Made by a program: the position numbers and the translations under genes. DNA of 32,000 bases from Nostoc sp. PCC 7120 = FACHB-418 (lineage in GTDB: Bacteria; Cyanobacteriota; Cyanobacteriia; Cyanobacteriales; Nostocaceae): positions 5,130,001 through 5,162,000 of the forward strand of contig NC_003272.1 of NCBI RefSeq assembly GCF_000009705.1, given 5' to 3'. Below the pieces are notes generated by a model, which was given only the letters and a program-made list of their open reading frames with translations, was not told the origin of the DNA and did no database searches. Numbering within the stretch: position 1 is the first letter of the stretch; each line of letters opens with the position of its first letter. Positions 6,432 to 28,681 of the stretch are shown here, one piece after another.

Positions 6432-7164
6432 AAAATTCTAAATACCCGTTACTGAGTTCTTTAACAGCCAAATCATAAAACTGCTTACCATGTTCTGGTG
6501 TTGCTAAAGCGGGATTGGAACCCATGCGTCCATCTGGGTAATGTTGGCGAAAGTCGGTAGCACTGTAAATTCTATGTCCTCTGGCTACTTCTGGTGAAAG
6601 CGGTGCTTGCTTAATTGCTTCTGGGTAAACATATTGAGTCACGGCTACTTCGCTGGGTGTAGCATGAGAACCTTCTTTGTCACCGTACAATTCTTTGGCA
6701 AGTTGGTACACAGAACTGCACATAAACCAGTTGCCGACTTGACATTGTACCTTATGGGCAGAGGGAATCTGCAAGTCTTCCAGATATACGTATGTTTCTG
6801 AGAATGCAGCTTTGAGGGTAGCGATATTACCGCCGTGTCCGTTAATAAAGTAGAACTTAGTGAAACCAGCTTTGGCAAGACTAGTTACATAATCTCGCAC
6901 TAGCAAAATTAAAGTACTAGGACGCAAACTAATCGTACCCGGAAATGCAGCATGGTGTAGAGCCATCCCCACATTGATTGTAGGCGCAACGATCGCCCCT
7001 GTTGCTTCACCCACTCCATGAGCGATCGCTTCTGCACAAATCGCATCTGTCCCGATTAATCCCGTCGGCCCATGCTGTTCAGTCGAACCAATCGGCAGAA
7101 TAATTCCCGTTGATTTTTGCAAGTAGGTTTCAACTTCCTGCCATGTGCTTAAACTTAGTAACAT
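6415..7164 (-). CDS. Creatininase-family amidohydrolase
   Basis: 249 aa. The N-terminal signature ILPIGSTEQHGPTGLIGTDAICAE and the NGHGGN motif are typical of the creatininase family. Confidence 0.8.
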   Translation of the reverse strand: MLLSLSTWQEVETYLQKSTGIILPIGSTEQHGPTGLIGTDAICAEAIAHGVGEATGAIVAPTINVGMALHHAAFPGTISLRPSTLILLVRDYVTSLAKAGFTKFYFINGHGGNIATLKAAFSETYVYLEDLQIPSAHKVQCQVGNWFMCSSVYQLAKELYGDKEGSHATPSEVAVTQYVYPEAIKQAPLSPEVARGHRIYSATDFRQHYPDGRMGSNPALATPEHGKQFYDLAVKELSNGYLEFLTNDQ

Positions 7165-7188
7165 TTTTATTCACTTTCCAGTACTAGT

Positions 7189-8682
7189 TTATACAAATAC
7201 CTGGGGAGTAAAGTTGCCGTGAAGGCCATAGGGTACGTGATGCTGGAGATGTAGCCTAGCGATCGCCCCTTTAGTAAAGTCACTAGCATCTAAAATTACC
7301 ACATCTGAACGGTGATGAGCCGCATCATAAACTAGAGCCAGTACCCAACCATCATCCTCTTTTTCTGAGCCTGGACGAGGAACAAAAATCGGCTCACCCG
7401 TAAAACCGCGAGGTGCCACACTCCAGATCTGTTTTTCTCCAGACTCTAAATCTATTTTCAATAATGCTTGCAATGGTGCATTACCTGTAGCTGCATGAGC
7501 CGCACTCATATACAAGTATCGATAAGAGCGTCCTACATTACGGGGATGAATTGCGGGAAACTCACAACAACGAGATTCAATTAATTTTTTTTGTACTGTC
7601 CCATCTTTGAGGTTAAGGTAAAAACGCCATAGTTGACCAGGTGCGATCGCCTCAAAATCCACTTGACGAAAATCACTTTCTGGCTCTACTTCTGGTAAAG
7701 AGTCGTAGCAAAGGGAATCTACAAGAATTTCCTCTCCCACAACAAAAGCATTAACGTGATGGAAAATGAAACCTGAACCTACTTCTAAAGTTTTGATTTC
7801 TTTTTGTCCTGACTGAGGAAAGCGAGGAATGACAATAATCCGTGTTGGCTGATTTGGTTGTACTTGAATACATTCCCCAGCGCCACGTAATCCTAAAGCG
7901 AAAGGGATGGGGTTAAAACTAACAGGATTTTGAAAGAAGATGCAGTGATTAGGTGTAATTACAAAATCGTGAATAAAACAAAACCCAGGTACATGATGAG
8001 CGTGCTTTCTGACAACTTCGCCTGCTACATTTAACTCAAAAATCGTAATTGTTGTAGATAATCCGGGTTTAATTGAAAAATTGACTAAGCAAGGTGCGCC
8101 GTTATCTTGTTCACAACTGGGGTCAAATCGGGGATGAGCGCCAAAAGCCTCACCTGCTGACAAAACACCATGAAAATATTCTTTGCCCAATGTATCTAAC
8201 GTTTTGGGGTCAAGGCGATGGGGTTCTGCCGCCTCCCACAATGCCAATAGTTTCTCACCCCAATAGATAACATTAGTGTTAGCAATATTCTTCAGCTTGA
8301 AATCGAAAATATTAGCTAACCAACCACCAGGTTTTTGAGTACCAAAAACTCCCCGATGCAGAATTTTACCAGCATTTTTCTCTGCTAAATACCCTTCTGT
8401 TTTGACAAAACTATTACGGTAATGGGCGCGACCATTGACAAAGCTAATACGGCTAATCATGCCATCGCCATCAAAGGGATGATGAATGCTTTGTCCTTTT
8501 ATATCCAGCAATCCTGGCCCGTTTCTAAACAAAGTACCTTGCAGTTCGGTAGGAATTTCCCCTTCTACATCATCAATCCAATAATCAAACTCTTGCCTTA
8601 GAGATTTATACCCTCCCTGCCAGTCTTCACGAGTATATGATTTTTCTAAATTTTTCTTTTGTTGATATTTGTAACTTTGCAT
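7189..8682 (-). CDS. Carotenoid cleavage oxygenase (RPE65/apocarotenoid oxygenase family)
   Basis: Four iron-ligand His contexts are present: HPFDGDGM, FCFIHDF, FHHVNAF and YGLHGNF. I start the gene at ATG 8682 (MQSYKYQQ), because the longer ORF begins at a TTG 21 nt upstream. Confidence 0.9.
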   Translation of the reverse strand: MQSYKYQQKKNLEKSYTREDWQGGYKSLRQEFDYWIDDVEGEIPTELQGTLFRNGPGLLDIKGQSIHHPFDGDGMISRISFVNGRAHYRNSFVKTEGYLAEKNAGKILHRGVFGTQKPGGWLANIFDFKLKNIANTNVIYWGEKLLALWEAAEPHRLDPKTLDTLGKEYFHGVLSAGEAFGAHPRFDPSCEQDNGAPCLVNFSIKPGLSTTITIFELNVAGEVVRKHAHHVPGFCFIHDFVITPNHCIFFQNPVSFNPIPFALGLRGAGECIQVQPNQPTRIIVIPRFPQSGQKEIKTLEVGSGFIFHHVNAFVVGEEILVDSLCYDSLPEVEPESDFRQVDFEAIAPGQLWRFYLNLKDGTVQKKLIESRCCEFPAIHPRNVGRSYRYLYMSAAHAATGNAPLQALLKIDLESGEKQIWSVAPRGFTGEPIFVPRPGSEKEDDGWVLALVYDAAHHRSDVVILDASDFTKGAIARLHLQHHVPYGLHGNFTPQVFV

Positions 8683-8727
8683 ATAAAAAAAGGTGAGAAT
8701 CAAGAAAGAATTATTCCGCGTGACTTC

Positions 8728-8770
8728 ATGTCTCCGTGTTGAGAAAACAACCTTTTAACCACAGAGACAT
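8728..8770. repeat. Hairpin-forming small dispersed repeat: ATGTCTCCGTG ... TTAAC-CACAGAGACAT
   Basis: The stem is 11 bp with one mismatch and the loop is 21 nt. The TTAACCACAG(A/G)GACA motif recurs at 23278-23292 in a second hairpin. Confidence 0.6.
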
Positions 8771-8816
8771 TGAGACACAAGTAAAAATTAGGCTATCGTT
8801 GGTTGAGAAACTTTAT

Positions 8817-10238
8817 TCAACTACTTTCGGTTCTGGGTTCTGCTTCTCGCAACCTTAATTCCGGAACTAAATTGGACACTTGAGTATTAGCTGAAGCTGG
8901 TGCTAATGCCTGGGTTTCTATTTCTGCATCATCGGATGGTAGCCAGTTGAGAAACGGCAATGGTAATAGTGTACTCAAGTTAGTAATTAATACCAAAAGC
9001 CAAAGTAAATCAAAGTTAGTTTCAGTAATTCCTAGCCAGTGCATGATGATGGCTCCCGCTTCGTAAGAAACCATGCCTGCTAAATTAAAGACTGACATCA
9101 ACAAGGCAAATAATGTGGCTTCTACACCAGGGGGGCAAAGTCTGGCAGAGAGTACCAAAACTGGCATATAAGCAATTTGTCCCATCACTGTGAGAATGAG
9201 GCTATCACCCAAACTAAACCAACGGTCGTCTATACCCAAAGCCCGATTTGTGTGTGTCACCAGCAATAGCATGGTCATGCCCAAAACTGCGGAAATGACC
9301 GTACTCCAACCAAAAATTAGCCGGAAAGAGACACTTTTTAAGAAACGTTGAAAAATCCAAACACCAATCAAAGATGCCAGACTAGTAACTAAACGCACTC
9401 GCCCTAAAAACTCTGGTTCAAAGTGGAGTTCATTGGTGCTGAAGAAGAAAAAGGCTGAGTCAGCAGTTGGTGTGGCTTGCCAAATAAATACGAATGCAGT
9501 GGGTAGCCAAATACTTTTTTGGGTGAATGCTTGGCGCAGTTGCTGTAGTTGATGCTTGACACTGAGGAGGTTAGTATTACCACTCCCATCTTTACTAACG
9601 GGAGACTCAGCAATCAACCAAGCGACCCCTGAGACTATGAGGGGAAATGAGGCTGTAATCCCAAATACAGTACGGGTTGTGAAATGCTCCAGTAGCAACC
9701 CACTGAAGTAGGCAGTAATCAAACCGCCAAAGGCAGAAGCTCCCCAACATAATGCTTGTAGTGAACCAACATGAGCCACTGATTCTTCTCTGGCACGTTC
9801 CACAACTAGGGAGTCAACTATCACATCACTCACCGCAACAGATAGAGAACCAAGAGCGATCGCCACGGTAGCTGCCCAGCTAGTATGAACTATTGTGGCC
9901 AAACTGATCCAAGAAATTGCCCCCAGTATCCCTGATAACACTAGGTATGGTCGGCGACGGTAGCCGAATATCGGTAAGCCGTCTGAAACAAAGCCAAATA
10001 ATGGCTTAACCATCCAAGGTAAGGCAACAATTCCCATTAATGCCGATACCTGAACAGGACTTAACAACAATTCATCTTTGAGGAAAAAGCTGACGGCTAG
10101 ACGCGCCAGGCCTAAAATCCCTTGGACAAAATAGACGCTAAGGATGGCAATTAATTCGGCACTAGGTTCATTACCGAAGAAAATTTGTTTTCTTACTGAG
10201 TCTTTGACCTTGGACAAGCCAGAGGAGTCAATCAGCAT
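8817..10238 (-). CDS. Folate-biopterin transporter family MFS protein (BT1)
   Basis: 473 aa with about 12 TM helices. The N-terminal region ILSVYFVQGILGLARLAVSFFLKDEL ... LPWMVKPLFGFVSDGLPIFGYRRRPYL matches BT1-family hallmarks as I remember them. Confidence 0.75.
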   Translation of the reverse strand: MLIDSSGLSKVKDSVRKQIFFGNEPSAELIAILSVYFVQGILGLARLAVSFFLKDELLLSPVQVSALMGIVALPWMVKPLFGFVSDGLPIFGYRRRPYLVLSGILGAISWISLATIVHTSWAATVAIALGSLSVAVSDVIVDSLVVERAREESVAHVGSLQALCWGASAFGGLITAYFSGLLLEHFTTRTVFGITASFPLIVSGVAWLIAESPVSKDGSGNTNLLSVKHQLQQLRQAFTQKSIWLPTAFVFIWQATPTADSAFFFFSTNELHFEPEFLGRVRLVTSLASLIGVWIFQRFLKSVSFRLIFGWSTVISAVLGMTMLLLVTHTNRALGIDDRWFSLGDSLILTVMGQIAYMPVLVLSARLCPPGVEATLFALLMSVFNLAGMVSYEAGAIIMHWLGITETNFDLLWLLVLITNLSTLLPLPFLNWLPSDDAEIETQALAPASANTQVSNLVPELRLREAEPRTESS

Positions 10239-13730: not shown

Positions 13731-14786
13731 ATGACCATCGCAGTAGGACGGGCCCCCAGTAGAGGGTGGTTTGACGTACTAGACGACTGGTTAAAGCGCG
13801 ATCGCTTCGTATTCGTAGGCTGGTCAGGGATATTATTATTTCCTTGCGCCTTCCTAGCACTAGGCGGTTGGCTAACCGGTACAACATTTGTAACGTCGTG
13901 GTACACCCACGGACTAGCATCATCCTACCTGGAAGGAGCAAACTTCCTGACAGTAGCAGTATCCAGCCCAGCAGACAGCATGGGACACTCCCTGTTGTTG
14001 TTATGGGGGCCAGAAGCCCAAGGCGACTTGACCCGTTGGTTTCAGCTAGGAGGGTTATGGCCATTCGTAGCCCTACACGGAGCCTTTGGATTAATCGGGT
14101 TCATGCTACGTCAATTTGAAATTGCGCGGCTAGTAGGAATTAGACCCTACAACGCACTAGCATTTTCAGCCCCCATCGCGGTATTCGTCAGCGTATTCCT
14201 GATGTACCCCTTGGGACAATCTTCCTGGTTCTTCGCACCCAGCTTCGGAGTAGCAGCAATCTTCAGATTCTTGTTATTCCTCCAAGGGTTCCACAACTGG
14301 ACACTCAACCCCTTCCACATGATGGGAGTAGCTGGTGTACTAGGTGGAGCGTTACTGTGTGCCATCCACGGTGCCACAGTAGAAAACACCTTGTTTGAAG
14401 ACGGCGAAGGCGCAAACACCTTCCGTGCCTTCAACCCCACCCAATCAGAAGAAACCTATTCAATGGTGACAGCCAACCGATTCTGGTCACAGATATTCGG
14501 GATTGCGTTCTCCAACAAACGCTGGTTGCACTTCTTCATGTTGTTCGTACCCGTAACTGGGTTGTGGATGAGTGCTGTAGGCATCGTCGGTTTAGCATTA
14601 AACCTCCGGGCTTATGACTTCGTTTCCCAAGAACTACGGGCAGCAGAAGACCCAGAATTTGAAACCTTCTATACCAAGAACATTTTGTTGAACGAGGGTA
14701 TCCGCGCTTGGATGGCTCCTCAAGATCAGCCTCACGAAAAATTTGTATTCCCCGAAGAGGTACTACCACGTGGTAACGCTCTCTAA
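13731..14786 (+). CDS. psbD: Photosystem II D2 reaction-centre protein
   Basis: The 351-aa translation is an unmistakable D2 sequence ([33 protein letters not shown] ... [12 protein letters not shown]). Confidence 0.99.
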
Positions 14787-16149
14787 TACCTTAGGCGGCG
14801 GACGCGACCAAGAATCATCCGGTTTTGCTTGGTGGTCTGGTAATGCGCGCCTAATTAACTTATCCGGTAAACTGCTGGGCGCTCACGTTGCTCATGCTGG
14901 CTTGATTGTATTCTGGGCTGGAGCGATGACTTTATTTGAAGTCGCTCACTTTATTCCAGAAAAACCAGTGTACGAGCAGGGTTTAATCCTGTTACCTCAC
15001 GTCGCTACCCTTGGTTGGGGCGTTGGCGTTGGTGGTGAAGTTATCGACACCTTCCCCTACTTTGTTGTCGGTGTACTCCACCTGATTTCTTCTGCTGTAT
15101 TAGGCTTTGGTGGTATTTACCATGCCGTCCGTGGCCCAGAAACCTTAGAAGAGTACTCCTCTTTCTTTGGTTACGACTGGAAAGACAAGAACAAGATGAC
15201 CAATATCATTGGCTTCCACCTGATCATCCTGGGATGTGGTGCGTTGCTGTTGGTATTAAAAGCAATGTTCTTTGGTGGTGTCTATGACACATGGGCCCCT
15301 GGTGGTGGTGATGTACGTGTAATTACTAATCCCACACTGAACCCAGCTGTGATCTTCGGTTATTTGCTTAAATCCCCCTTCGGTGGCGAAGGTTGGATTG
15401 TTAGCGTTAATAACATGGAAGATGTCATTGGCGGACACATCTGGATCGCTTTAATTTGTATTTCTGGCGGTATTTGGCACATCTTCACAAAGCCTTTCGG
15501 TTGGGCGCGTCGTGCGTTCATCTGGTCTGGTGAAGCATATCTTTCCTACAGCTTAGGCGCTTTGTCCTTAATGGGCTTTATCGCTTCCTGTATGGTTTGG
15601 TACAACAACACCGTTTACCCCAGCGAATTCTTCGGTCCCACCGGCCCTGAAGCTTCTCAAGCTCAAGCATTGACCTTCTTGGTTCGTGACCAACGCTTAG
15701 GTGCTAACGTCGGTTCTGCCCAAGGCCCTACAGGTCTAGGTAAATACTTGATGCGCTCTCCTTCTGGTGAAATCATCTTTGGTGGTGAAACCATGCGCTT
15801 CTGGGATTTCCAAGGCCCTTGGTTAGAGCCTCTACGTGGCCCTAACGGTCTTGATCTCGACAAAATCAAGAATGATATTCAGCCTTGGCAAGCACGTCGC
15901 GCTGCTGAATACATGACCCACGCTCCTCTAGGTTCTTTGAACTCTGTGGGCGGTGTGGCTACAGAAATTAACTCCTTCAACTACGTCTCACCTCGTGCGT
16001 GGTTGGCTACTTCTCACTTTGTGTTAGGATTTTTCTTCTTAATTGGTCACTTGTGGCACGCTGGACGCGCTCGCGCTGCGGCTGGTGGTTTTGAGAAGGG
16101 TATCGACCGTGAGAATGAGCCAGCAATGGCTATGGGTGACCTTGACTAG
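14770..16149 (+). CDS. psbC: Photosystem II CP43 chlorophyll-binding protein
   Basis: The translation is an unmistakable CP43 sequence ([50 protein letters not shown] ...). I start it at GTG 14770, which overlaps psbD by 17 nt. The ATG at 14743 would add a non-conserved MYSPKRYYH. Confidence 0.97.
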
Positions 16150-20547: not shown

Positions 20548-22059
20548 TTAGCGTAGCTTGCCGAATGTGTCACTCAAAGGACTTTGTTTTGAGGCTAGAC
20601 GCGCTCTCCCGGCTGCTGCCCATTCTTGTAGTTCCTGAATCTGCTCTACAGCCGTTCTGGCTAGGGGTATGATTTGACTAGCCGCTTCTAAAACATCGTC
20701 GGTAGTGAAATCTCGGTTTTGACTAAAGCCGATGTGCATCGCTTCTATTAAAGTTTGCTCGATTTCTGCCCCTGAAAAATCTGGCGTTTCGTACGCTAAT
20801 CGCTCAATGTCATAATTTTTCAAATTGTGGGGGCGCAGTCGGGATAAATGAACATTAAAAATGGCTTTTCTTTCTTCTTGACTGGGTAAACCAACAAAGA
20901 AAATTTCGTCAAACCGCCCTTTCCGCAACATTTCTGGCGGTAGGGCTTGGATGTTATTGGCGGTGGCGACAACGAACACTGGGGAAGTTTTTTCGGCTAG
21001 CCAAGTAATAAATGTGCCGAAGACGCGGCTAGTAGTTCCCGCATCACCTTTACTACCCAGTCCAGAAAAGGCTTTATCGATTTCATCAATCCAGAGAATA
21101 CAGGGTGCGAGGGCTTCTGCTACTTGAATCATTTGCCGGGTACGGGATTCTGATTCACCCACCAAACCGCCAAATAATCGTCCCACATCTAGGCGTAGTA
21201 GGGGTAAATGCCAATGATGAGCGATCGCTTTTGCGGTTAAGGATTTACCAGTACCTTGAATCCCCACTAATAATAAACCCCGTGGGTGTGGTAATCCATA
21301 TTGGCGGGCGCGTTCACTAAAGGAACCACCACGGCGTAATAGCCAATCTTTGAGGTTATCTAGTCCTCCTATGTCAGAAATCTGCTCTGTGGCGGGGTAA
21401 AAGTCGAGGATTTGGGTTTGGCGGATAGTTTGGCGCTTTTCCTCCAAAACTAAATCTACGTCTTCTGGTTGCAATTCTCCGTGGGTAGCGATCGCTTTCG
21501 CTAAAACCCGCCGAATCCTTTCCATCGATAGCCCTTGGCAAGAACGCACCAAATCATCTGTAACTTTCCCAGAGAGGGAATTACCAGTTGCTTGCAGTAG
21601 ACGTTCAATCTCTATTTTAATTTCTGGAGCGTTAGGTAAGGGGAACTCGACAACCGTTAAAATTTCAGTTAAATCGTCAGGTATGGCGATGCGTGGCGAC
21701 AATAGGACGATGTTTTTCGGTTGTGACTTCAGCAGTCTGGCTAGGTTGCGGAGTTTGCGAGCGATCGCTACATCATCTAAAAATCGATGATAATCTCGCA
21801 GAATAATTACTGCTGGTGCTGATGCTGGTATTTTTTCTAAAAATTCTAAAGCTTGCAGGGGATTACGCCGCCCAAAACCCGCGTCATTGGGGTTACCTTG
21901 ATACCCATCGACAAAATCCCAGGTATATACTGGGCGATTACCTTGATTGGCTGCTTCTTCGCGGATAGCGGTTTCTACCCGTTCTTCTTCATAGGTAGGT
22001 ATGTAAATTAACGGATAACGCGCTCTCAGTAGCAGTTTAAACTCTTCACGGAAGTTCAT
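20548..22059 (-). CDS. AAA+ family ATPase (single classical AAA module in the C-terminal half)
   Basis: Walker [14 protein letters not shown], Walker [10 protein letters not shown], sensor-1 region VVATANN and arginine-finger region [11 protein letters not shown] are present. Confidence 0.88.
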
Positions 22060-22195
22060 ATCTAGGGGTTATGGTTAGTTGCTCTTGATGGCAATGTACA
22101 ACTTTCTTTAACCAAAATCCCATTTGATCATGCGATCTAGTACGGAGTGGGGTATTGGGGACTAGGGGAACAGAGATCAGGAGGAAAGGATATAG

Positions 22196-22230
22196 TGACC
22201 AATGACAACTGACAACTGACTAATGACTCA
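22196..22230. repeat. STRR-type heptamer array (TGACCAA/TGACAAC/TGACTAA)
   Basis: The units read tgaccaa tgacaac tgacaac tgactaa tgactca. The array contains the stop codon and the last codons of the 22220-22876 ORF. Confidence 0.9.
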
Positions 22231-22876
22231 TAACAAGTTGTTGCTTAAAGTAGCTCTTGGGTAAGAAACAGCGATCAGGTAAGAAAGGATTATCAATATA
22301 TTGGGATAAGAAAGTGCCTGGTTGGACTCTATGACAGAATGGCGGCACAATTCCCCAATCTTCTGCTAACCAAATCCAGTATCCTATTTCGATTTTGCCG
22401 TAGCTGGATACAGTTAAAATTTCCCCGACGCTATTGTTGATAGATACTAGCTCAGGGGATGATTTAACTTCAGTTAATAACCAGGCTAATTCATCTACAG
22501 AAAAGTAATAACCGTAATCAGCCGCTACTTTGGTAAACTGCTGTGGATTTTTTGCTGACAGTAATTGATCTTTAAGCGACGGTGTTTTCTGTGCTAAATC
22601 AAATAAATTCCAAATCTGCTTCCTGGTAACGAGGAACCAAGCAATTTCTTCTGCTCTTAAGTAATATCCGTTATCTACTACTAAGTTAATAAACCCTTCC
22701 AGGGTCTCAACTTCTCCTAATTGACTTTTTAAGAAAAAGTTTTGCTCTACAAAAGCAAAAAAATCAATAACTTTCTGCCACGTTAACTTATTAGGAATAT
22801 TATAAAGATTTATTTCTTTTTTCCAAAAGATATATTTTTCTTCTTTCAGAAAGAAATTCCATATTTGGTAATACAC
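22220..22876 (-). CDS. Hypothetical protein with two tandem Nif11-like modules
   Basis: The internal repeat is FLKSQLGEVETLEGFINLVVDNGYYLRAEEIAWFL versus SLKDQLLSAKNPQQFTKVAADYGYYFSVDELAWLL. This is the Nif11-domain pattern (helix, then xLxxkL, then GYxfsxeEl). The start codon is GTG with no internal Met nearby, so the start is uncertain. Confidence 0.5.
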   Translation of the reverse strand: MYYQIWNFFLKEEKYIFWKKEINLYNIPNKLTWQKVIDFFAFVEQNFFLKSQLGEVETLEGFINLVVDNGYYLRAEEIAWFLVTRKQIWNLFDLAQKTPSLKDQLLSAKNPQQFTKVAADYGYYFSVDELAWLLTEVKSSPELVSINNSVGEILTVSSYGKIEIGYWIWLAEDWGIVPPFCHRVQPGTFLSQYIDNPFLPDRCFLPKSYFKQQLVMSH

Positions 22877-23260
22877 AATTTACGCTTCCTTTCTTTGAAT
22901 TTTTGTGAAAGTATTATTAAGTATCAGTGTAGTAACTATAAACGTGTATATTCGACAGTATTCACAAAACTTTTTCTGTGAATAACAGCACATAGAGCAT
23001 ACGTATATTTTCATGTAAAAACTATAGCTGATAGAAAAAGATTGCTGAAACAAAATAATCAGCGATCGCTTATTTTCTATTGTTAAAAATAGTGCTAATT
23101 TCTAAATATATAGAAATGTTTGTATAAATTATTTAGGATTGCTTGAATAAAACTTTATGTAGTTATGTAACAAATAGAACGTATGGTTAAATTACGGAGA
23201 TAGCAAAGGCGATCTCTGATTCTTGATTATTAGATGAAATTTATCTGTATATGCTAAATA

Positions 23261-23290
23261 TCCCTGTAGTAGAGAATTAACCACAGGGAC
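23261..23290. repeat. Hairpin repeat TCCCTGT ... TTAACC-ACAGGGA, related to the 8728-8770 element
   Basis: The stem is 7 bp and the loop is 15 nt, and it shares TTAACCACAG(A/G)GACA with 8755-8769. It lies 27 nt downstream of the stop of the 23317-24786 gene on the minus strand, so it may act as a terminator. Confidence 0.45.
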
Positions 23291-23316
23291 ACACAGGTAA
23301 AATAAATATGCAGTAC

Positions 23317-24786
23317 TTACTTTGAGCTTATTGTTAAATCGCGGAGGTAGTAAAAGCGATCGCTCCTCCAATCATTACCTTTAACTCTGCCTAAATAGCC
23401 TGTTAAAGGTGATGAAAGTTCTATCAAAATCTCGTGCATTTCCTCTGTTTTTAGTGGTTGTGGTGGATGTGAGGCGAAATAAGCACCATGTAGAGCTTCG
23501 GCACCAGCAGATTCTGTCCCTGAATTTTCTAGATAATTGTTAACAAGCTGAATAATATGCGATCGCAACTTGATAGCTTGTTCAACTTTATCAATATATT
23601 CATTAATTTTATAGTCAATCTGTCCAGGTTTTAGATACTTTCGCAATTCAATTAAGTTGATAGCACCGGGATATTTGACTTTGAGTTCAACTAGTTTTTG
23701 TAAAGTCATTACATTTATAATACTGATTTTAGATATTTCAGCAGAGTCTTTCAGGTTTTTAGTAGGTTGACCTGGGCCAATAATTAATTTTACTGCTTGA
23801 AGGTAATTTTCTTTAAGATGTCTTTTGCCAATCCTATCTAATTCTTCTACTGCACGATCGGGAATACTTTTACCTGCTTTACATTCGCAAACCAAAGGGT
23901 AAGGTTGTGAACAGAATAAATCTAAGCCTCCAGCACCACCTTTATAAGCATATTCAACCTTAAATCCTAAAAATTCTAGACTTTGACGTGTAATATTTTC
24001 AAAGTCTGTACCAGCTTGGTAATTGCTTTTTTTCTCGTCCAGCTCTATGCTACGATCGCCTAACTTAGCAATGTCATTTATCCAAGCTAAATCTGTATTT
24101 AGTGTTTGAATCTGCTTAGTATTCTTCCAACCTAAAAATATTTGAATATCATCGTCTAATTCTTTAGCTCCTGGGTTACTGATTGCAAGTGGGGCTAGAA
24201 AACTCTGTAATTCATCTAATTCTGGATGCTGTGGGGGTTCTATTTTTTCTAGTTGTTGTTTGCGTCGTTCGAAGATGCTATCTTTTAAAATTGGTTTATC
24301 TTCAGAACCAGCGATGTTAGGTAAACTTACGAATTTACCGAATTTTTCTTGAATATTGGCATCAACAGTAACTTTACACTCCTGGGGTAAATGGTAAACA
24401 CGCAGGTAAACCAGAAAAATATTCTCTTGTTTCTGTATGATTGCTTCAAATGCTTTAGGTGTCCATATTGTTAATTGAGACAAAACATTTAAAGGTTTAG
24501 TCTTATCTATAACTTGGCAAAGTTCACATCTTGCCCAAGCTTTAATAAACACAGTTTGAGAAGAATGTTGTTGAATATTAGTTCTGGCGACGGATAATAA
24601 ATTTGCACGATAGTATTGCTCGATTGAAAGGGTATCAATTGAGATATCAGCAGGATAAAGTAAAAATTTCTGCCCAGGACGAATAAACATCTTAGGCATA
24701 GCTGCTATTGTCCGCCCCTGTATTAAAGCTTCAATCTCAGGGGCAGGTAAACACAGCGCTGTTGGAATTGAAAACAGCTGGTTCAT
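23317..24786 (-). CDS. Two-domain protein: possible PUA/ASCH-like (DUF1802-like) N-terminal domain plus a C-terminal PD-(D/E)xK (Mrr/restriction-endonuclease-like) nuclease core
   Basis: The nuclease signature is GTDFENITRQSLEFLGFKVEYAYKGGAGGLD(289)LFCSQPYPLVCE(301)CK(303)AGKS, covering nt 23857-24015. The N-terminal 135 aa (LPAPEIEALIQGRTIAAMPKMFIRPGQKFLLYPA...IFLVYLRVYHLP) resemble DUF1802/ASCH-like proteins as I remember them. The start is 10 nt after the upstream stop. Confidence 0.65.
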   Translation of the reverse strand: MNQLFSIPTALCLPAPEIEALIQGRTIAAMPKMFIRPGQKFLLYPADISIDTLSIEQYYRANLLSVARTNIQQHSSQTVFIKAWARCELCQVIDKTKPLNVLSQLTIWTPKAFEAIIQKQENIFLVYLRVYHLPQECKVTVDANIQEKFGKFVSLPNIAGSEDKPILKDSIFERRKQQLEKIEPPQHPELDELQSFLAPLAISNPGAKELDDDIQIFLGWKNTKQIQTLNTDLAWINDIAKLGDRSIELDEKKSNYQAGTDFENITRQSLEFLGFKVEYAYKGGAGGLDLFCSQPYPLVCECKAGKSIPDRAVEELDRIGKRHLKENYLQAVKLIIGPGQPTKNLKDSAEISKISIINVMTLQKLVELKVKYPGAINLIELRKYLKPGQIDYKINEYIDKVEQAIKLRSHIIQLVNNYLENSGTESAGAEALHGAYFASHPPQPLKTEEMHEILIELSSPLTGYLGRVKGNDWRSDRFYYLRDLTISSK

Positions 24787-24796
24787 TTCTATTTAG

Positions 24797-26701
24797 CTAT
24801 AGGGTGAGGTCGATATGGTCGCTAGTCGCAAAGCTTTGAGGAATACTAATAGGTAATCCATCATCAGTTAAATTAGTCGGTTCTTGACCAGAAGGATCAC
24901 TAAGAATTTCTCGGATTAGAGGATTATTAATTGCTATTTGTTTTTGTTCAATAAAATCAAATATTTGTTCTTCTGTCAGTTCGTAGCTTTCGCTGTTATA
25001 CCAAACAAAATAAATAGCTAGGAGAGGTTTAATGTCTTGGCTTTGTAAGCCTACCCACTCTCCACCTTTCTGCTTTAGCAGTGTTTTTAACTTCTCTCTA
25101 GCTAATGCTGCACCTGGGCTAATATTTTTAGATCGAACTAGGCAACCACGAGTTAAATCAAACTTTTTGTAATCAACTAATCGCTTTAATGCAGCACCTA
25201 TATACGTACCATCTTTCTGCACGACAGCCACTCCAATCCGTTGTTTTCTGTTTTTGCTAACAATTCTGAAATCTATATAGCCCTGGTCTGCTGTACTAGC
25301 TTCAATTTCTTCAATTTCTTCAATGATTACTCCTTCTAAAGTTTCACCTACTAAACTATTGAAAGCCAGCCAAAGAGCATCGGCAATAGTTGCGTCCTCT
25401 TCCATTAATGAATCAATAGAGGCTTCAACATTTGCTAATTCACTATCGAAGTATGGTTTAACAGGATGTAGGATTTGTGCTGGAGGGGTAGGTATTATCC
25501 TTTCTCCACTCAGAGGCGAAGGAAGGAAAAAATTTTCTGCACACCATTTTAAAACTGATCTAATAGTAGGTTTACCTCTGCCAAGCTCTCTGAGTTTAGT
25601 TTCATCAAATGGGTAGAGAGTATGAGGAGGATTATGTTCATTCTCTTGATAAAACTCTTTTAACCATTGCTGAACAAGAGCAACAATATCATCAGAATTA
25701 AGATATTTTAATGAGATTGGTTGTCTATCAGATTGTTCACTTACTAATCTATCAATTACTGCCTCAGCTTGTGGTAATGCCCTAATTTGCTCATTCCAAG
25801 TTTCGGGATACATCGATAGTAGTAAAACACCTTGTTTGAGGTTATTGTATAAATCCTTTGTTAAATTGGCAATTATTTGTGCTGCTGTAAAACCTGTGTC
25901 TGAAATCTCTGCAATATCTAATTCATCAAAGCAAATCACTGGAACTCTATAATGGCTAGTTATATCTAATATTTGCCGCACATTACTTAATGCTTCAGCC
26001 TCCCTGTCTTCATTTTTAGGATTTGGTAAACCCAATACATCAGATTGTGATCCAGTGATCTCTAAACCTGATAGCCAACAGGTCGCATAATGGGCGTGTG
26101 CTGTAGAAAGTGTCCACAAAATAGCTCGAATTATATAAGGATTAGTAACATCATGCTTAATTTTTAGCACTGTTTCTGTTAATCCATCAATTGTTTTAGT
26201 CGAATACTTATTTAACCAAGTTGGATAGATATTACTGATGTATTGTTGTGGTGTATATTGACAATTCTTAGCCTCATTAATTAAAGCTGCGGCTATTTCT
26301 TGCCACTGCATTACTTTTTGACTACCAAATGCTCTTAGGCTACAAGCAACAGTTTGTTGAAATTGATATTTTATTTGATTCAAGTTGTCATACTTACTCA
26401 TGTAAATGAATAAAGTATTCTCTTCTGTCTGTAAGCGATGCCGGATACGACTAATGAGATGGCTTTTACCTAATCCCTTTTCAGCAGTTATCGTGATGCC
26501 TACAGTTTCACGTTTTCCATTATGGATTTTTTCAACTGCATCAAAAACTGCATTAGAAGCATGAGCATTAATTGAGGGAACATCAGGATAACTTTTACCC
26601 CATATTTGTTGTGGTCTGACAACAATATGTCCAGCAAAAGGGTTTTGATTTCTAATGAGTTCATCAATGGTAGATGTAGTAGCAATCATGGTGTTATACA
26701 T
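24797..26701 (-). CDS. P-loop NTPase of ORC/Cdc6-/STAND-like AAA+ layout with a large uncharacterised C-terminal region
   Basis: Walker A is GITITAEKGLGKSHL (Lys79, nt about 26465-26467) and Walker B is VPVICFDELD (Asp259/Glu260, nt about 25922-25927). A lid-like segment LNSDDIVALVQQWLKEF follows. The protein is 634 aa. Confidence 0.7.
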   Translation of the reverse strand: MYNTMIATTSTIDELIRNQNPFAGHIVVRPQQIWGKSYPDVPSINAHASNAVFDAVEKIHNGKRETVGITITAEKGLGKSHLISRIRHRLQTEENTLFIYMSKYDNLNQIKYQFQQTVACSLRAFGSQKVMQWQEIAAALINEAKNCQYTPQQYISNIYPTWLNKYSTKTIDGLTETVLKIKHDVTNPYIIRAILWTLSTAHAHYATCWLSGLEITGSQSDVLGLPNPKNEDREAEALSNVRQILDITSHYRVPVICFDELDIAEISDTGFTAAQIIANLTKDLYNNLKQGVLLLSMYPETWNEQIRALPQAEAVIDRLVSEQSDRQPISLKYLNSDDIVALVQQWLKEFYQENEHNPPHTLYPFDETKLRELGRGKPTIRSVLKWCAENFFLPSPLSGERIIPTPPAQILHPVKPYFDSELANVEASIDSLMEEDATIADALWLAFNSLVGETLEGVIIEEIEEIEASTADQGYIDFRIVSKNRKQRIGVAVVQKDGTYIGAALKRLVDYKKFDLTRGCLVRSKNISPGAALAREKLKTLLKQKGGEWVGLQSQDIKPLLAIYFVWYNSESYELTEEQIFDFIEQKQIAINNPLIREILSDPSGQEPTNLTDDGLPISIPQSFATSDHIDLTL

Positions 26702-26722
26702 TTAAGAGTGAGTAAGCAAAAA

Positions 26723-27406
26723 TCAGACTTTTAACAATTTGGCGTAGCAGCGTAATCCATCTAATACCGTAGTGATGGAATCTTCTATCTTGTCAGGCGC
26801 GCTATCTTCTACACTTCCGCCTTGTAGTTGTAAAATATCGTCAGCCTGCATTTCTAGCAGCCAATCATTAAATTGAGTACGATTTAAACGATCGCCTATT
26901 TCTCTCCTAATCCGATAAATCGGTACTAGATGATTGAAGTTGTATTCATAGTTCAACTTGTCGTAGACTTCCAGTACAGTTGATTTAAACTCGTCATAGG
27001 ATGCGTAGCCCGTTGCACTCTTCACGCCGTTGACTGATTTAGCTTGTTCAGTCACAGAAACATTTATCTGACTAATCCATTTCAATAGAGCATTCGCCGC
27101 CCAAGTTCCGACAATAGTTCCTTCAAATTGGAAATTACCAGTTCTTAAACCCTCGCCCAATACCTCTAAACCCTTAGGAGATGTCAAAAAGTATCCTTGT
27201 TTAGAGCCTGCGATTACTCCGTGGTTTTGCAAGTCTTCAAATAAACTGTGATAATCTGCTGCCTTCTTGCCTTTAGTTAAAATTCGTTTTGTAAGTAGTC
27301 CTTTCTTAATTTCCTGCTGCGTTCCTCCCAAATCCCACAAAGCTAATAGGAGCCGAGTTTTAGCTTGAGTTTCTCCGCATTGGAAGCTAGTGATTTTTGA
27401 TACCAT
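26723..27406 (-). CDS. Hypothetical protein with two possible winged-helix modules; first gene of the three-gene operon
   Basis: 227-aa ORF. The segments LFEDLQNHGVIAGSKQGYFLTSPKGLEVL and LVPIYRIRREIGDRLNRTQFNDWLLEMQADDILQLQGG have helix-wing patterns. I see no catalytic motif. The stop lies 21 nt before the next start. Confidence 0.6.
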   Translation of the reverse strand: MVSKITSFQCGETQAKTRLLLALWDLGGTQQEIKKGLLTKRILTKGKKAADYHSLFEDLQNHGVIAGSKQGYFLTSPKGLEVLGEGLRTGNFQFEGTIVGTWAANALLKWISQINVSVTEQAKSVNGVKSATGYASYDEFKSTVLEVYDKLNYEYNFNHLVPIYRIRREIGDRLNRTQFNDWLLEMQADDILQLQGGSVEDSAPDKIEDSITTVLDGLRCYAKLLKV

Positions 27407-27720
27407 AAAATTAGTTCTGCCAAATAGAACTAGTATAGTTTTGCTAACTACGGAAAAAGCGCCGTGAAACTGCGGAAAGAAATATACTAATTTCCCATAT
27501 TGTCAAGTATTGAAAGTTATTTACTTGTGTTAACTAATACGGTTGTTTGTGATGATCGCTCTTAATTTCTCCCTACATATCTTTATACTTACTAACCAAA
27601 AGCCTATTTCTTTGGAGCGATCGCAATGTCTCTCAAAGGTAGGACGGAATATATATCAAATCAGATCACCATATACAACAGTTAAACGTCCTCAGACAGA
27701 ATTTCCCCAGGAGATAGATT

Positions 27721-27990
27721 ATGGTGGGTGATTTTTTCCGTAAAGCGAAAGATTTTATGGGTGGTTCCAGAGACGAAGAACGTGAGGAAGAGCGTGGTTA
27801 TCAGGAACGCTGGGGAGAAAGCGATCGCCGTTCCCGCAATGACCGTGATGAAGATGAAGAGGACGAGGAGGATTATTCCGGCGATGTCCGCCGCTCCCGT
27901 GATGACCGCTATGACGACGAAGAAGATGAAGAGGAGTACTCTGGTCGTTCTGGCAGAGACCGCTATGACGACGAAGACGAGGACGAATAA
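27721..27990 (+). CDS. Hyper-acidic, Arg/Asp/Glu-rich low-complexity repeat protein (89 aa)
   Basis: AGGAG (27709-27713) lies 7 nt upstream of ATG 27721. The protein has about 2.5 imperfect repeats of R(S/D)R(N/D)DR(D/Y)(E/D)DEEDEE(D/E)YSG. Three other overlapping ORFs lack a ribosome-binding site and look like low-complexity mirror frames. Confidence 0.55.
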   Translation: MVGDFFRKAKDFMGGSRDEEREEERGYQERWGESDRRSRNDRDEDEEDEEDYSGDVRRSRDDRYDDEEDEEEYSGRSGRDRYDDEDEDE

Positions 27991-28021
27991 TATCAACTGT
28001 GAGAATGGGTAATGGTAACAA

Positions 28022-28056
28022 CCAATCACCAATTACCCATTACCCATTACCAATTT
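28022..28056. repeat. STRR-type heptamer array (CCAATTA/CCCATTA)
   Basis: The units read ccaatca ccaatta cccatta cccatta ccaattt. The array contains the stop and the last codons (..EIGNG) of the pentapeptide-repeat gene. Confidence 0.85.
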
Positions 28057-28681
28057 CTAATATTGTCCCTACCAAACAAGCTTTATCTGTATTCACACCT
28101 TGTAAATTTGCACCTTCCAACTCTGCACAGAGTAAGTTAGCCCCGGTCAAATTCACTCCCGCCAGATTCGCCCCCCGTAAATCGGCTTCTTCGAGATTCG
28201 CTTCACTCAACAACGCCCCTTGCAAATCAGCACGGCTTAAGTCTGCGCCTTTCAGGTTAGCACCACTTAGGTTAACACCTCGCAAGTCAGCGCCCCGTAG
28301 ATCAACGCCTTGTAAATTGACGTTCATTAAATTAGCGCCACTCAAAAAAGCACCAGCCAAAGCTACACCACTAAGTCTAGCTCCCATCAGATTAGCACCA
28401 CGCAAATTACTACCCCGCAAGTCTGCCCCTGTTAAATCTGCCTGCATCAAATTGGCTCCCATCAAGTTTGCCCGCAAGTCAGTTTCTTGGAGAGTTGCAC
28501 CCATCAAATTTGCACCCTCTAAATGTCCACCTTCGAGTTTAGAGCGAGTAAAGTTAGTACCCACAAGGTGAGCGCCAGCTAAATTAATGCGGCTTAAATC
28601 CAGTTGAGAAAGTTCCTCATCTTCTAAATTCGCCCCTGGCAGTTGTTTGAGTTGTCCTAGTTTAATAGCGTCAATATTCAT
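28040..28681 (-). CDS. Pentapeptide-repeat protein
   Basis: About 35 consecutive A(D/N)LxG-type pentapeptides run through the protein (ANLMGATLQETDLRANLMGANLMQADLTGADLRGSNLRGANL...). Its start ATG overlaps the upstream stop as ATGA at 28678-28681. Confidence 0.95.
   Translation of the reverse strand: MNIDAIKLGQLKQLPGANLEDEELSQLDLSRINLAGAHLVGTNFTRSKLEGGHLEGANLMGATLQETDLRANLMGANLMQADLTGADLRGSNLRGANLMGARLSGVALAGAFLSGANLMNVNLQGVDLRGADLRGVNLSGANLKGADLSRADLQGALLSEANLEEADLRGANLAGVNLTGANLLCAELEGANLQGVNTDKACLVGTILEIGNG

Follow-up and report, generated by a model that had tools for sequence, protein, structure and literature searches.

What do three tightly packed genes of Nostoc sp. PCC 7120 (Anabaena), all4300, all4299 and all4298, contribute to their host? 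They lie on the minus strand of a 32,000-nucleotide stretch of contig NC_003272.1 (positions 5,130,001 to 5,162,000), which is called the window here and whose coordinates are used throughout. An original prediction, made from the letters of the sequence, had read the genes as a candidate defence or restriction-like operon of a winged-helix-like protein, an ATPase and a nuclease. With a probability of roughly 0.6, we regard the trio as a nucleoside triphosphate (NTP)-dependent, probably modification-sensing, restriction-like system directed against phages and other foreign DNA; the comparisons on which this reading rests point in addition to a recognition cassette that is swapped between related genomes at a fixed locus. 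Accession and literature cross-reference identified G1 as all4300 (BAB75999 = NP_488340, 227 aa), G2 as all4299 (BAB75998) and G3 as all4298 (BAB75997), and the window proteins were 100 % identical to the PCC 7120 database entries. The list of open reading frames (ORFs) confirmed the three minus-strand frames of 227, 634 and 489 aa; since each has more than 1000 homologue clusters, all three are real genes. The trio comprises the following features:

26723..27406, minus strand: G1 (all4300, 227 aa), small protein in which a variable linker separates two conserved blocks of helix-helix-helix-wing-like pattern
26726..26896, minus strand: C-terminal tail of G1 (residues ~171-227), member of the variable cassette that co-varies with G2
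24797..26701, minus strand: G2 (all4299, 634 aa; 630 aa from Met5), predicted Orc/Cdc6-STAND-type AAA+ ATPase
26459..26485, minus strand: Walker A of G2 (residues 73-81, AEKGLGKSH), from motif conservation
25916..25939, minus strand: Walker B of G2 (residues 255-262, VICFDELD), from motif conservation
25049..25396, minus strand: C-terminal alpha/beta domain of G2 (residues ~436-551, a-b-b-b-a-b), from the secondary structure of the AlphaFold2 (AF2) model
23317..24786, minus strand: G3 (all4298, 489 aa), predicted ASCH reader, helical linker, PD-(D/E)xK nuclease, helical region and winged helix
24253..24786, minus strand: DUF1802, an ASCH/PUA-like domain of G3 (residues 1-178), from Pfam PF08819 and Foldseek
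23671..24081, minus strand: PD-(D/E)xK nuclease domain of G3 (residues ~236-372), from conservation, Foldseek and Mrr_cat in relatives
23878-24000, minus strand: catalytic residues E263, D289, E301 and K303 of G3, with the GGxGG loop at residues 283-287
23332..23514, minus strand: C-terminal winged-helix-like domain of G3 (residues ~425-485), from Foldseek, with the conserved ELSSPLxGYLGR...FYxLR
24277..26896, minus strand: putative variable recognition cassette (G1 tail, G2 and ASCH of G3), approximate limits carried over from other loci

Do the three genes belong together? A single operon had been proposed, and the homologous loci agree with it: among 47 cyanobacterial genome loci retrieved with G3, about 45 have the same order G1-G2-G3, with gaps of 2-50 nt in most. 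The trio thus forms a conserved operon. In PCC 7120 the gaps measure 21 nt (G1-G2) and 10 nt (G2-G3); homologues and one NCBI annotation start G2 at a conserved Met5 (position 26689, 630 aa), which widens the first gap to 33 nt. The connection of ATPase and nuclease goes as far as gene fusion in four metagenomic relatives (P0442, P0458, P0470, P0483), which join a full G2-like ATPase to the nuclease and C-terminal module of G3 without ASCH; one fused relative stands alone between HicB and PIN/DUF2281 toxin-antitoxin genes. In other variants the nuclease module is joined to ParB_N, to TPR repeats or to a second nuclease module. The ParB_N variant P0516 (locus L054, 5388-8698) is located within a dense toxin-antitoxin cluster (three PIN/DUF2281, DUF433/DUF5615, ParE and DUF4258), and a 133-aa protein encoded 1.2 kb upstream of it matches the N-terminal block of G1 only. 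This single case fits an association of the G1 body with the nuclease module and of the G1 tail with the ATPase.

What kind of effector does the operon encode? The original prediction overlooked the N-terminal domain of G3, which we rank as the most informative feature of the trio. Residues 10-178 match DUF1802 in Pfam (PF08819, E 4e-42). In an AlphaFold model built on 120 homologues (predicted local distance difference test, pLDDT, 81.9) and compared with the PDB by Foldseek, this domain adopts an ASCH/PUA-like fold with ZmASCH, TRIP4 ASCH, YqfB and TTHA0113 as neighbours (probability up to 1.0). The central domain resembles PD-(D/E)xK nucleases of the NucS/EndoMS type (2vld, 5gke), and the C-terminus, with a motif conserved in the family, resembles the Cdt1 C-terminal domain and the winged helix (wH) of ORC/Cdc6. 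The E...D...ExK core recognized earlier in this protein proved to be a family trait, as E263, D289, E301 and K303 are kept in 93-95 of 98 divergent family representatives. Pfam Mrr_cat (PF04471) has no match in G3 of the window; it scores 32.2 bits against a cut-off of 21 in the divergent relative P0405 and 18.4 bits in P0458. PADLOC returned only a weak nuclease-core match for G3 (CARF_PDDEXK core, E 2.5e-4). As modelled, G3 is shown as an ASCH/PUA-like reader, predicted to bind nucleic acid or modified bases, that is joined to a PD-(D/E)xK nuclease of the Mrr/NucS kind, intact in its core, and to a winged helix. P0405 itself (Lyngbya sp. CCY1209, 685 aa) has a DUF1802 domain followed by two tandem modules of nuclease and C-terminal domain.

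An ASCH domain could also read something other than DNA. In an RNA-directed or abortive-infection system, it would sense a modified RNA or nucleotide (e.g., of the N4-acetylcytidine (ac4C) type, phage-induced), and G2 would activate G3 for an indiscriminate nucleic-acid degradation that kills or arrests the infected cell. The closest ASCH structures indeed include the single-strand RNase ZmASCH and the ac4C amidohydrolase YqfB, free modified nucleotides can be ligands of PUA-family domains in defence systems (PMC12871103), and STAND/Orc-like ATPases are often infection sensors, with RdrA and NLR among the neighbours of G2. We consider this alternative unlikely, however, since the operon class was described with ASCH as a modified-DNA-binding domain (PMC10853773), TRIP4 ASCH binds double-stranded DNA (8yfj, 9kyl), and winged helices together with an Mrr/NucS-type nuclease point to a double-stranded DNA substrate.

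Which motor would control the nuclease? Pfam and NCBIfam yielded for G2 sub-threshold matches only (AAA_22, AAA_16, KAP, NPHP3_N, Sll1717 and DS41_1). Because its model (pLDDT 82) is closest to Cdc6/Orc1, ORC subunits, BREX BrxC, RADAR RdrA, TnsC and mS29 (Foldseek, probability ~1), G2 is, by predicted structure, an AAA+ ATPase of the Orc/Cdc6-STAND type; NLR was also among the neighbours. Profile matches and structural neighbours hence bear out the former assignment to Orc/Cdc6- or STAND-like ATPases instead of ABC proteins, helicases or McrB. The Walker motifs noted at that time are present, and G76, G78, K79 and H81 of Walker A as well as C257, F258, D259 and E260 of Walker B are invariant in 42 of 42 divergent variants, with S or T at position 80. 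In the AF2 model, the AAA+ core is followed by a disordered linker, an a-b-b-b-a-b domain (436-551) and helices. The would-be catalytic positions of this domain are not conserved (D, N or S at residue 477; V-Q-x at the 'ExK' position), and it is a putative inactive restriction endonuclease (REase)-like fold (iREase); hhalign detected no similarity between it and the REase of G3. G2 is highly polymorphic, with at least seven types. Membership in DS-41 (DefensePredictor) or Sll1717 was rejected on the NCBIfam scores, 25.4 bits against a cut-off of 370 and 25.9 against 75.

The small partner G1 had no match in Pfam, NCBIfam, PADLOC (including DptG), PHROG or the PDB, neither as single sequence nor as profile. 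Its alignment consists of two conserved helix-rich blocks flanking a variable linker, which as a pattern fits the two helix-wing segments of the original prediction; G1 is presumed from it to be a DNA-binding adaptor with multiple winged helix-turn-helix (wHTH) units. A hint to JetA (E 0.085) was not significant and was dropped.

How does such a locus evolve? Among 17 loci with identical flanks, the median pairwise identity was 0.92 for Mdh, 0.88 for MutM and 0.92 for the pgi-like protein, against 0.75 for G1, 0.67 for G3 and 0.49 for G2. The divergence of G2 was uncorrelated with genome divergence (rho 0.05), and G2 was only 41-44 % identical in pairs with 98 % identical flanks. DNA profiles of two such pairs located the change: the flanks and the greater part of G1 were 92-98 % identical; starting at the 3' end of G1, identity fell to about 50 %, stayed at this level across the whole of G2 and the initial ~400 bp of G3, and recovered to 82-96 % in the remainder of G3. 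In 111 close genome pairs with differing G2 types, identity was 0.65 in the G1 tail against 0.81-0.86 in the G1 body, and 0.49-0.60 in ASCH against 0.85-0.87 in linker and nuclease, whereas the 7 pairs sharing a G2 type had no identity drop in G1 tail or ASCH. Over 40 loci, G2 distances followed those of the G1 tail (rho 0.85) and of ASCH (0.60), with a cluster agreement of 0.76 (adjusted Rand index), and showed no correlation with those of the G1 body (0.13) or of the remaining G3 (-0.01); G1 body and rest of G3 correlated with each other (rho 0.59). The alignments show the exchange of one cassette, composed of G1 tail, G2 and the ASCH domain of G3, between close genomes, with conservation of the G1 body and the nuclease. 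A deletion in Nostoc sp. CHAB 5844 (L043, 7281-9065) matches the limits of this variable cassette: G1 is joined almost directly to residue 141 of G3, and G2 and the first 140 codons of G3, comprising most of ASCH, are lost. Invertible repeats or silent cassettes were not found near the locus. Since G2 of Gloeocapsa and Coleofasciculaceae is nearer to the PCC 7120 type than many Nostoc G2, the G2 types are old or laterally exchanged.

By its pattern of divergence, the trio behaves like a conflict locus with a constant effector and an exchangeable recognition module, and this evolutionary behaviour strongly favours the conflict or defence role that had been suggested. The swappable recognition cassette at a fixed locus is the new and most interesting observation of this study. 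It resembles the shuffling of hsdS in Type I restriction-modification systems, where recognition modules are likewise exchanged beside a constant catalytic part whose chromosomal locus is stable; unlike there, the exchanged unit of the trio spans three genes, with the tail of the adaptor, the ATPase in full and the domain of the reader. Tentatively, and with clearly less confidence than in the defence role as such, we propose an ancient, fixed immune locus of the Nostocales, in which a constant cutting part (G1 body with nuclease and winged helix of G3) is paired with a recognition cassette (G1 tail, whole ATPase, ASCH) drawn from seven or more deeply divergent types that are exchanged laterally; this would be a multi-gene specificity swap of a modification-sensing restriction system. 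If so, ATPase and reader would jointly define the target, and G1 would bridge both to the nuclease.

The hypervariability bears also on a housekeeping role. A DNA-repair or replication complex, in which ASCH would recognize damaged or mismatched bases for a NucS/EndoMS-like endonuclease and the Orc/Cdc6-like ATPase would act as loader, is very unlikely. Such a complex would agree with the resemblance of the nuclease domain to NucS/EndoMS, with the position of mutM about 3.5 kb from the trio in most Nostocales and with a chromosomal, broadly retained locus. Repair enzymes, however, are conserved, while this locus is hypervariable with allelic cassette exchange and dispensable in several genomes; the linkage to mutM is part of an unrelated psaE-mutM-ndhO-mdh block and lost in PCC 7120, and the family is limited to ~250 clusters whose named members are all cyanobacterial.

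Where is the trio found? The G3 family forms 252 clusters at 50 % identity among 1.84 billion representatives, and all members with a named source organism are cyanobacterial. The same site is occupied in 31-33 of the 47 loci, between the psaE-mutM-ndhO-mdh block (with a small lipoprotein-like gene) and a pgi-like gene. PCC 7120 lacks these usual flanks; there, a block of acidic ORF, trio and Nif11 protein was relocated, with psbDC, cell-wall, pentapeptide, DICT-HD and PrsW genes as neighbours. In a metagenome scan anchored on the neighbouring 162-aa gene, and thus independent of the trio, 15 of 18 evaluable Nostoc-like loci contained the trio, and it was absent from 3 with preserved mdh synteny. 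One of the trio-less sites (L078) holds an ABC transporter and an extracytoplasmic function (ECF) sigma/anti-sigma pair instead, and on that ground the site was rejected as a defence hotspot. About 6 of the 47 loci (L020, L024, L030, L031, L043, L045) have a deletion, truncated genes or kb-sized insertions within the trio; apart from the cassette deletion in L043, the disrupted copies have insertions of 1.2-1.4 kb between genes or a G2 or G3 that is split or shortened; in Allocoleopsis, G3 is truncated to 371 aa (L048, 11954-13069). These deletions and disruptions, together with the empty canonical sites, suggest that the trio is dispensable. The locus is ancient, mostly vertically inherited and dispensable, and therefore does not fit the expectation of a patchy spread in defence islands, which the original prediction had raised and which the fixed site among housekeeping genes in most Nostocales and the absence from plasmids and phages contradict. 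The Nostoc-like trio of an apparent Leptolyngbyaceae genome (L025) was not used as evidence for transfer between orders, as mis-binning of this metagenome-assembled genome is possible.

Could the trio be a decaying or domesticated selfish element? As a remnant of a Tn7-like element, with a TnsA-type REase and winged helix and a TnsC-type AAA+ protein, or as an addiction module, it would serve no present function of the organism. The layout of REase and winged helix resembles TnsA. TnsC is among the structural neighbours of G2, which has weak AAA_22 matches; the content of G+C at third codon positions (GC3) is low in G2 and G3, the block was relocated in PCC 7120, and PMC10853773 speaks of 'mobile gene neighbourhoods'. 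Opposed to this, the locus and its vicinity contain neither a transposase (TnsB/DDE or other) nor an integrase, terminal repeats or element ends, the Nostocales keep the trio at a fixed site, plasmids and phages lack it, and the catalytic motifs are under strong purifying selection. A selfish remnant is the least probable of the explanations considered. Base composition had been invoked in the original prediction, which held the trio to be more AT-rich than its surroundings. For the trio as a whole this applies (GC 0.367 against 0.416 in the window), but not for the third codon positions of G1, whose GC3 is ordinary (0.368); those of G2 and G3 are the lowest in the window (0.235 and 0.253, compared to 0.366 +/- 0.057 for the other genes).

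Is the trio described elsewhere? It had been considered a possibly undescribed family, yet one sentence in PMC10853773 (Nucleic Acids Research 2024) predicts a counter-invader operon of Orc/Cdc6, an ASCH-fused REase and a DndG-like wHTH protein. For this Orc/Cdc6 subfamily, the paper describes an iREase inserted after the AAA+ core and ahead of the C-terminal wHTH. It offers neither a name nor an experiment nor a verifiable cyanobacterial example for the operon, and its supplement text has no ASCH, Nostoc or Orc entries. With this class the trio shares an Orc/Cdc6-clade ATPase with intact Walker A and B and an active-site-intact REase fused to ASCH. The domain after the AAA+ core in the model of G2, devoid of conserved catalytic residues, may correspond to the iREase, and the small G1, in the place of the wHTH protein, may correspond to the DndG-like protein, with at least two helix-wing-like blocks by alignment compared to three wHTH in the class. 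It differs by its fixed chromosomal site and absence from mobile elements, as opposed to the mobile neighbourhoods of the paper, and by the cassette exchange, which the paper does not mention. The trio is, judged by its domains, a member of this computationally predicted, Orc/Cdc6-centred nuclease class, which is unnamed and not in PADLOC. That no known named system would match was foreseen correctly: beyond the weak nuclease-core hit, PADLOC gave none. No PDB chain matched G1, G2 or G3 significantly, whether by sequence or by profile, nor did the trio match PHROGs; a literature search on all4298 and all4299 found nothing, and DUF1802 appeared only in an unrelated soil-network paper.

Several well-studied systems share parts of the design. 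The Type IV nucleases with PUA-like readers (EVE-HNH VcaM4I and SRA-HNH; PMC6765204, PMC7897488) also fuse the reader to a nuclease and, like the trio, have no cognate methyltransferase. They are, however, single-chain and NTP-independent, whereas the trio combines a predicted ASCH/DUF1802 reader and PD-(D/E)xK nuclease with an obligatorily linked AAA+ ATPase and a small protein. McrBC consists of an AAA+ NTPase and a PD-(D/E)xK nuclease with a variable target reader; there the reader is on the NTPase, in the trio on the nuclease subunit, G2 is of the predicted Orc/Cdc6-STAND type and not a McrB-type GTPase, and the trio has a third subunit. McrB or McrC had no PADLOC, Pfam or NCBIfam match in the trio. 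BrxC/DUF499 of BREX, a defence ATPase of the Orc/Cdc6 clade that continues into an alpha+beta domain and a wHTH (PMC12839542), is one of the best structural neighbours of G2. G2 has half the size of BrxC, the effector of the trio is a dedicated nuclease, and PglZ, a PglX/BrxX methyltransferase, BrxA and BrxB do not accompany the trio in the window or in the conserved flanks.

The defence reading is preferred because a conserved operon, its domains, conserved catalytic motifs, ATPase-nuclease fusions and an independent published prediction coincide with an immune-like evolution, with cassette exchange whose sharp borders lie at domain boundaries, and with dispensability. The nuclease-module variants near toxin-antitoxin genes, the low GC3 of G2 and G3, the lack of a linked methyltransferase in the window and the conserved flanks, and the recovery of an All4300 homologue on a DNA-affinity probe (PMC2799420) add to this. 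A number of observations count against it. The very high occupancy of one ancient site is more typical for a vertically inherited, lineage-specific function; trio homologues were missing from 72,556 plasmids (PLSDB), 50,697 phage genomes (INPHARED) and IMG/VR, and the PCC 7120 neighbourhood, with neither defence genes nor a methyltransferase, is not a defence island. The co-variation of G1 tail, G2 and ASCH could be explained by plain linkage of adjacent DNA without protein contacts. The Foldseek E-values were modest (~1e-3), owing to the several domains of each model, and the fold of G1 has no profile support, as hhalign was negative for its blocks against each other and against the C-terminal wH regions of G3 and G2. 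As to the predicted ASCH ligand, ASCH proteins such as the neighbours ZmASCH and YqfB also act on RNA and ac4C nucleosides. Finally, all4300 was listed as a signature protein of Nostocales and Oscillatoriales (PMC2823733).

The signature status, the fixed chromosomal position among housekeeping genes and the absence from mobile elements would suit a regulatory or chromatin module. G1 and G2 would then be paralogous to RcaD and RcaG, which act in the expression of phycobiliprotein operons in Calothrix/Fremyella, and serve as lineage-specific transcription or nucleoid factors with G3 as accessory nucleic-acid-processing subunit. The Lyngbya homologue of All4300, protein 5335, was pulled down with a probe from a promoter region; its similarity to RcaD is weak (22 % identity, E 0.2), and its neighbour on the downstream side shares 23 % identity with RcaG (PMC2799420). 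As in the trio, strain PCC 7601 of Calothrix/Fremyella has an ATPase gene behind that of a small DNA-binding protein (PMC2799420). The similarity is marginal, however, and by the literature values not statistically significant for RcaD; the GST-5335 fusion caused no shift of the probe, and DNA binding by the RcaD orthologue was non-specific (PMC2799420). The available parts of the sources mention no nuclease partner of RcaD/RcaG, and a regulatory phenotype was reported for RcaD, but none for All4300. For a regulator, a nuclease active site intact throughout the family, an ATPase differing by ~55 % between genomes with 98 % identical flanks and deletions or disruptions in several genomes are all unexpected. 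A regulatory role is improbable on these grounds.

How might an anti-invader system of this composition act? On DNA, G1 and G2 may build a switch or oligomer under the control of ATP, in the manner of ATPases of the Orc/Cdc6, BrxC and TnsC type. The N-terminal part of G1 would bind DNA and/or the nuclease module, and its C-terminal tail would contact G2. The G1-G2 complex could then recruit or license G3, whose ASCH domain would inspect the modification state of the bound DNA before the nuclease cuts. Because a linked methyltransferase is lacking, the choice between self and non-self would follow a Type IV-like logic, i.e., DNA is cut that carries a modification absent from the host. The polymorphic cassette may set the recognition target or serve the evasion of phage inhibitors; the cassette pattern predicts that swapped cassettes change the target range and that the G1 tail contacts G2. 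If the trio is a working defence system, current defence-annotation tools have missed its family, as the lack of a PADLOC match indicates. The host is the main genetic model of the filamentous cyanobacteria and the trio occurs across most Nostocales, hence its relevance for cyanophage ecology and possibly for barriers to DNA transfer into Nostocales strains. The trio would also be a naturally occurring model for the coupling of recognition to an effector by ATPases of the Orc/Cdc6 type, which BREX has as well.

The borders of the operon were inspected for expression signals, with two features on record:

23254..23296, minus strand: hairpin directly 3' of the G3 stop codon, from folding energy against shuffles
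27407..27720, minus strand: upstream intergenic region, presumed operon promoter, with a weak sigma-70-like match at 27533-27506

The hairpin (-21.2 kcal/mol, z = -4.4), equalled by none of 200 shuffles, is probably the operon terminator or a stabiliser of the 3' end. Promoter-like matches upstream of G1 were no more numerous than in shuffles, so that 27533-27506 is a candidate position only. An Rfam scan of 22000-28200 gave no matches. The AT-rich spacer of 440 bp noted downstream of G3 extends from 22877 to 23316 (GC 0.28) and contains a HIP1-type palindrome, GCGATCGC, at 23057-23074; besides HIP1 and the coding repeats of the acidic ORF, the spacers have no notable repeats.

This acidic ORF (27721-27990, plus strand) encodes 89 aa, is extremely rich in D and E, has internal repeats with a period of 63 nt and is divergent from G1. 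In ~33 of the 47 loci a counterpart adjoins the trio, and in PCC 7120 the ORF was relocated together with the trio. Pfam returned no match for it, and a function as DNA mimic or regulator is pure speculation. On the other side, beyond the 440-bp spacer and on the strand of the trio, a 218-aa protein with two Nif11 domains (PF07862; 22220-22876, minus strand, GC 0.35) is kept downstream of the trio in ~24 loci; its size is atypical for a precursor of ribosomally synthesized and post-translationally modified peptides. In Allocoleopsis (L048), a DUF429 gene and a MoxR/Mg-chelatase-like AAA gene are located divergently upstream of the trio (7118-9023), and a DUF433/DUF5615 toxin-antitoxin pair directly downstream, beside kaiABC. 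The window further encodes a CDC48/FtsH-like AAA+ protein of 503 aa (20548-22059, minus strand) with matches to IetA in PADLOC (E 7.5e-24) and IteA in NCBIfam (69 bits, cut-off 510), which probably reflect a generic AAA similarity because an IetS-like partner is not adjacent. At 13731-16149 on the plus strand, psbD and psbC (Photo_RC and PSII families) overlap by ~44 nt in the usual psbDC arrangement.

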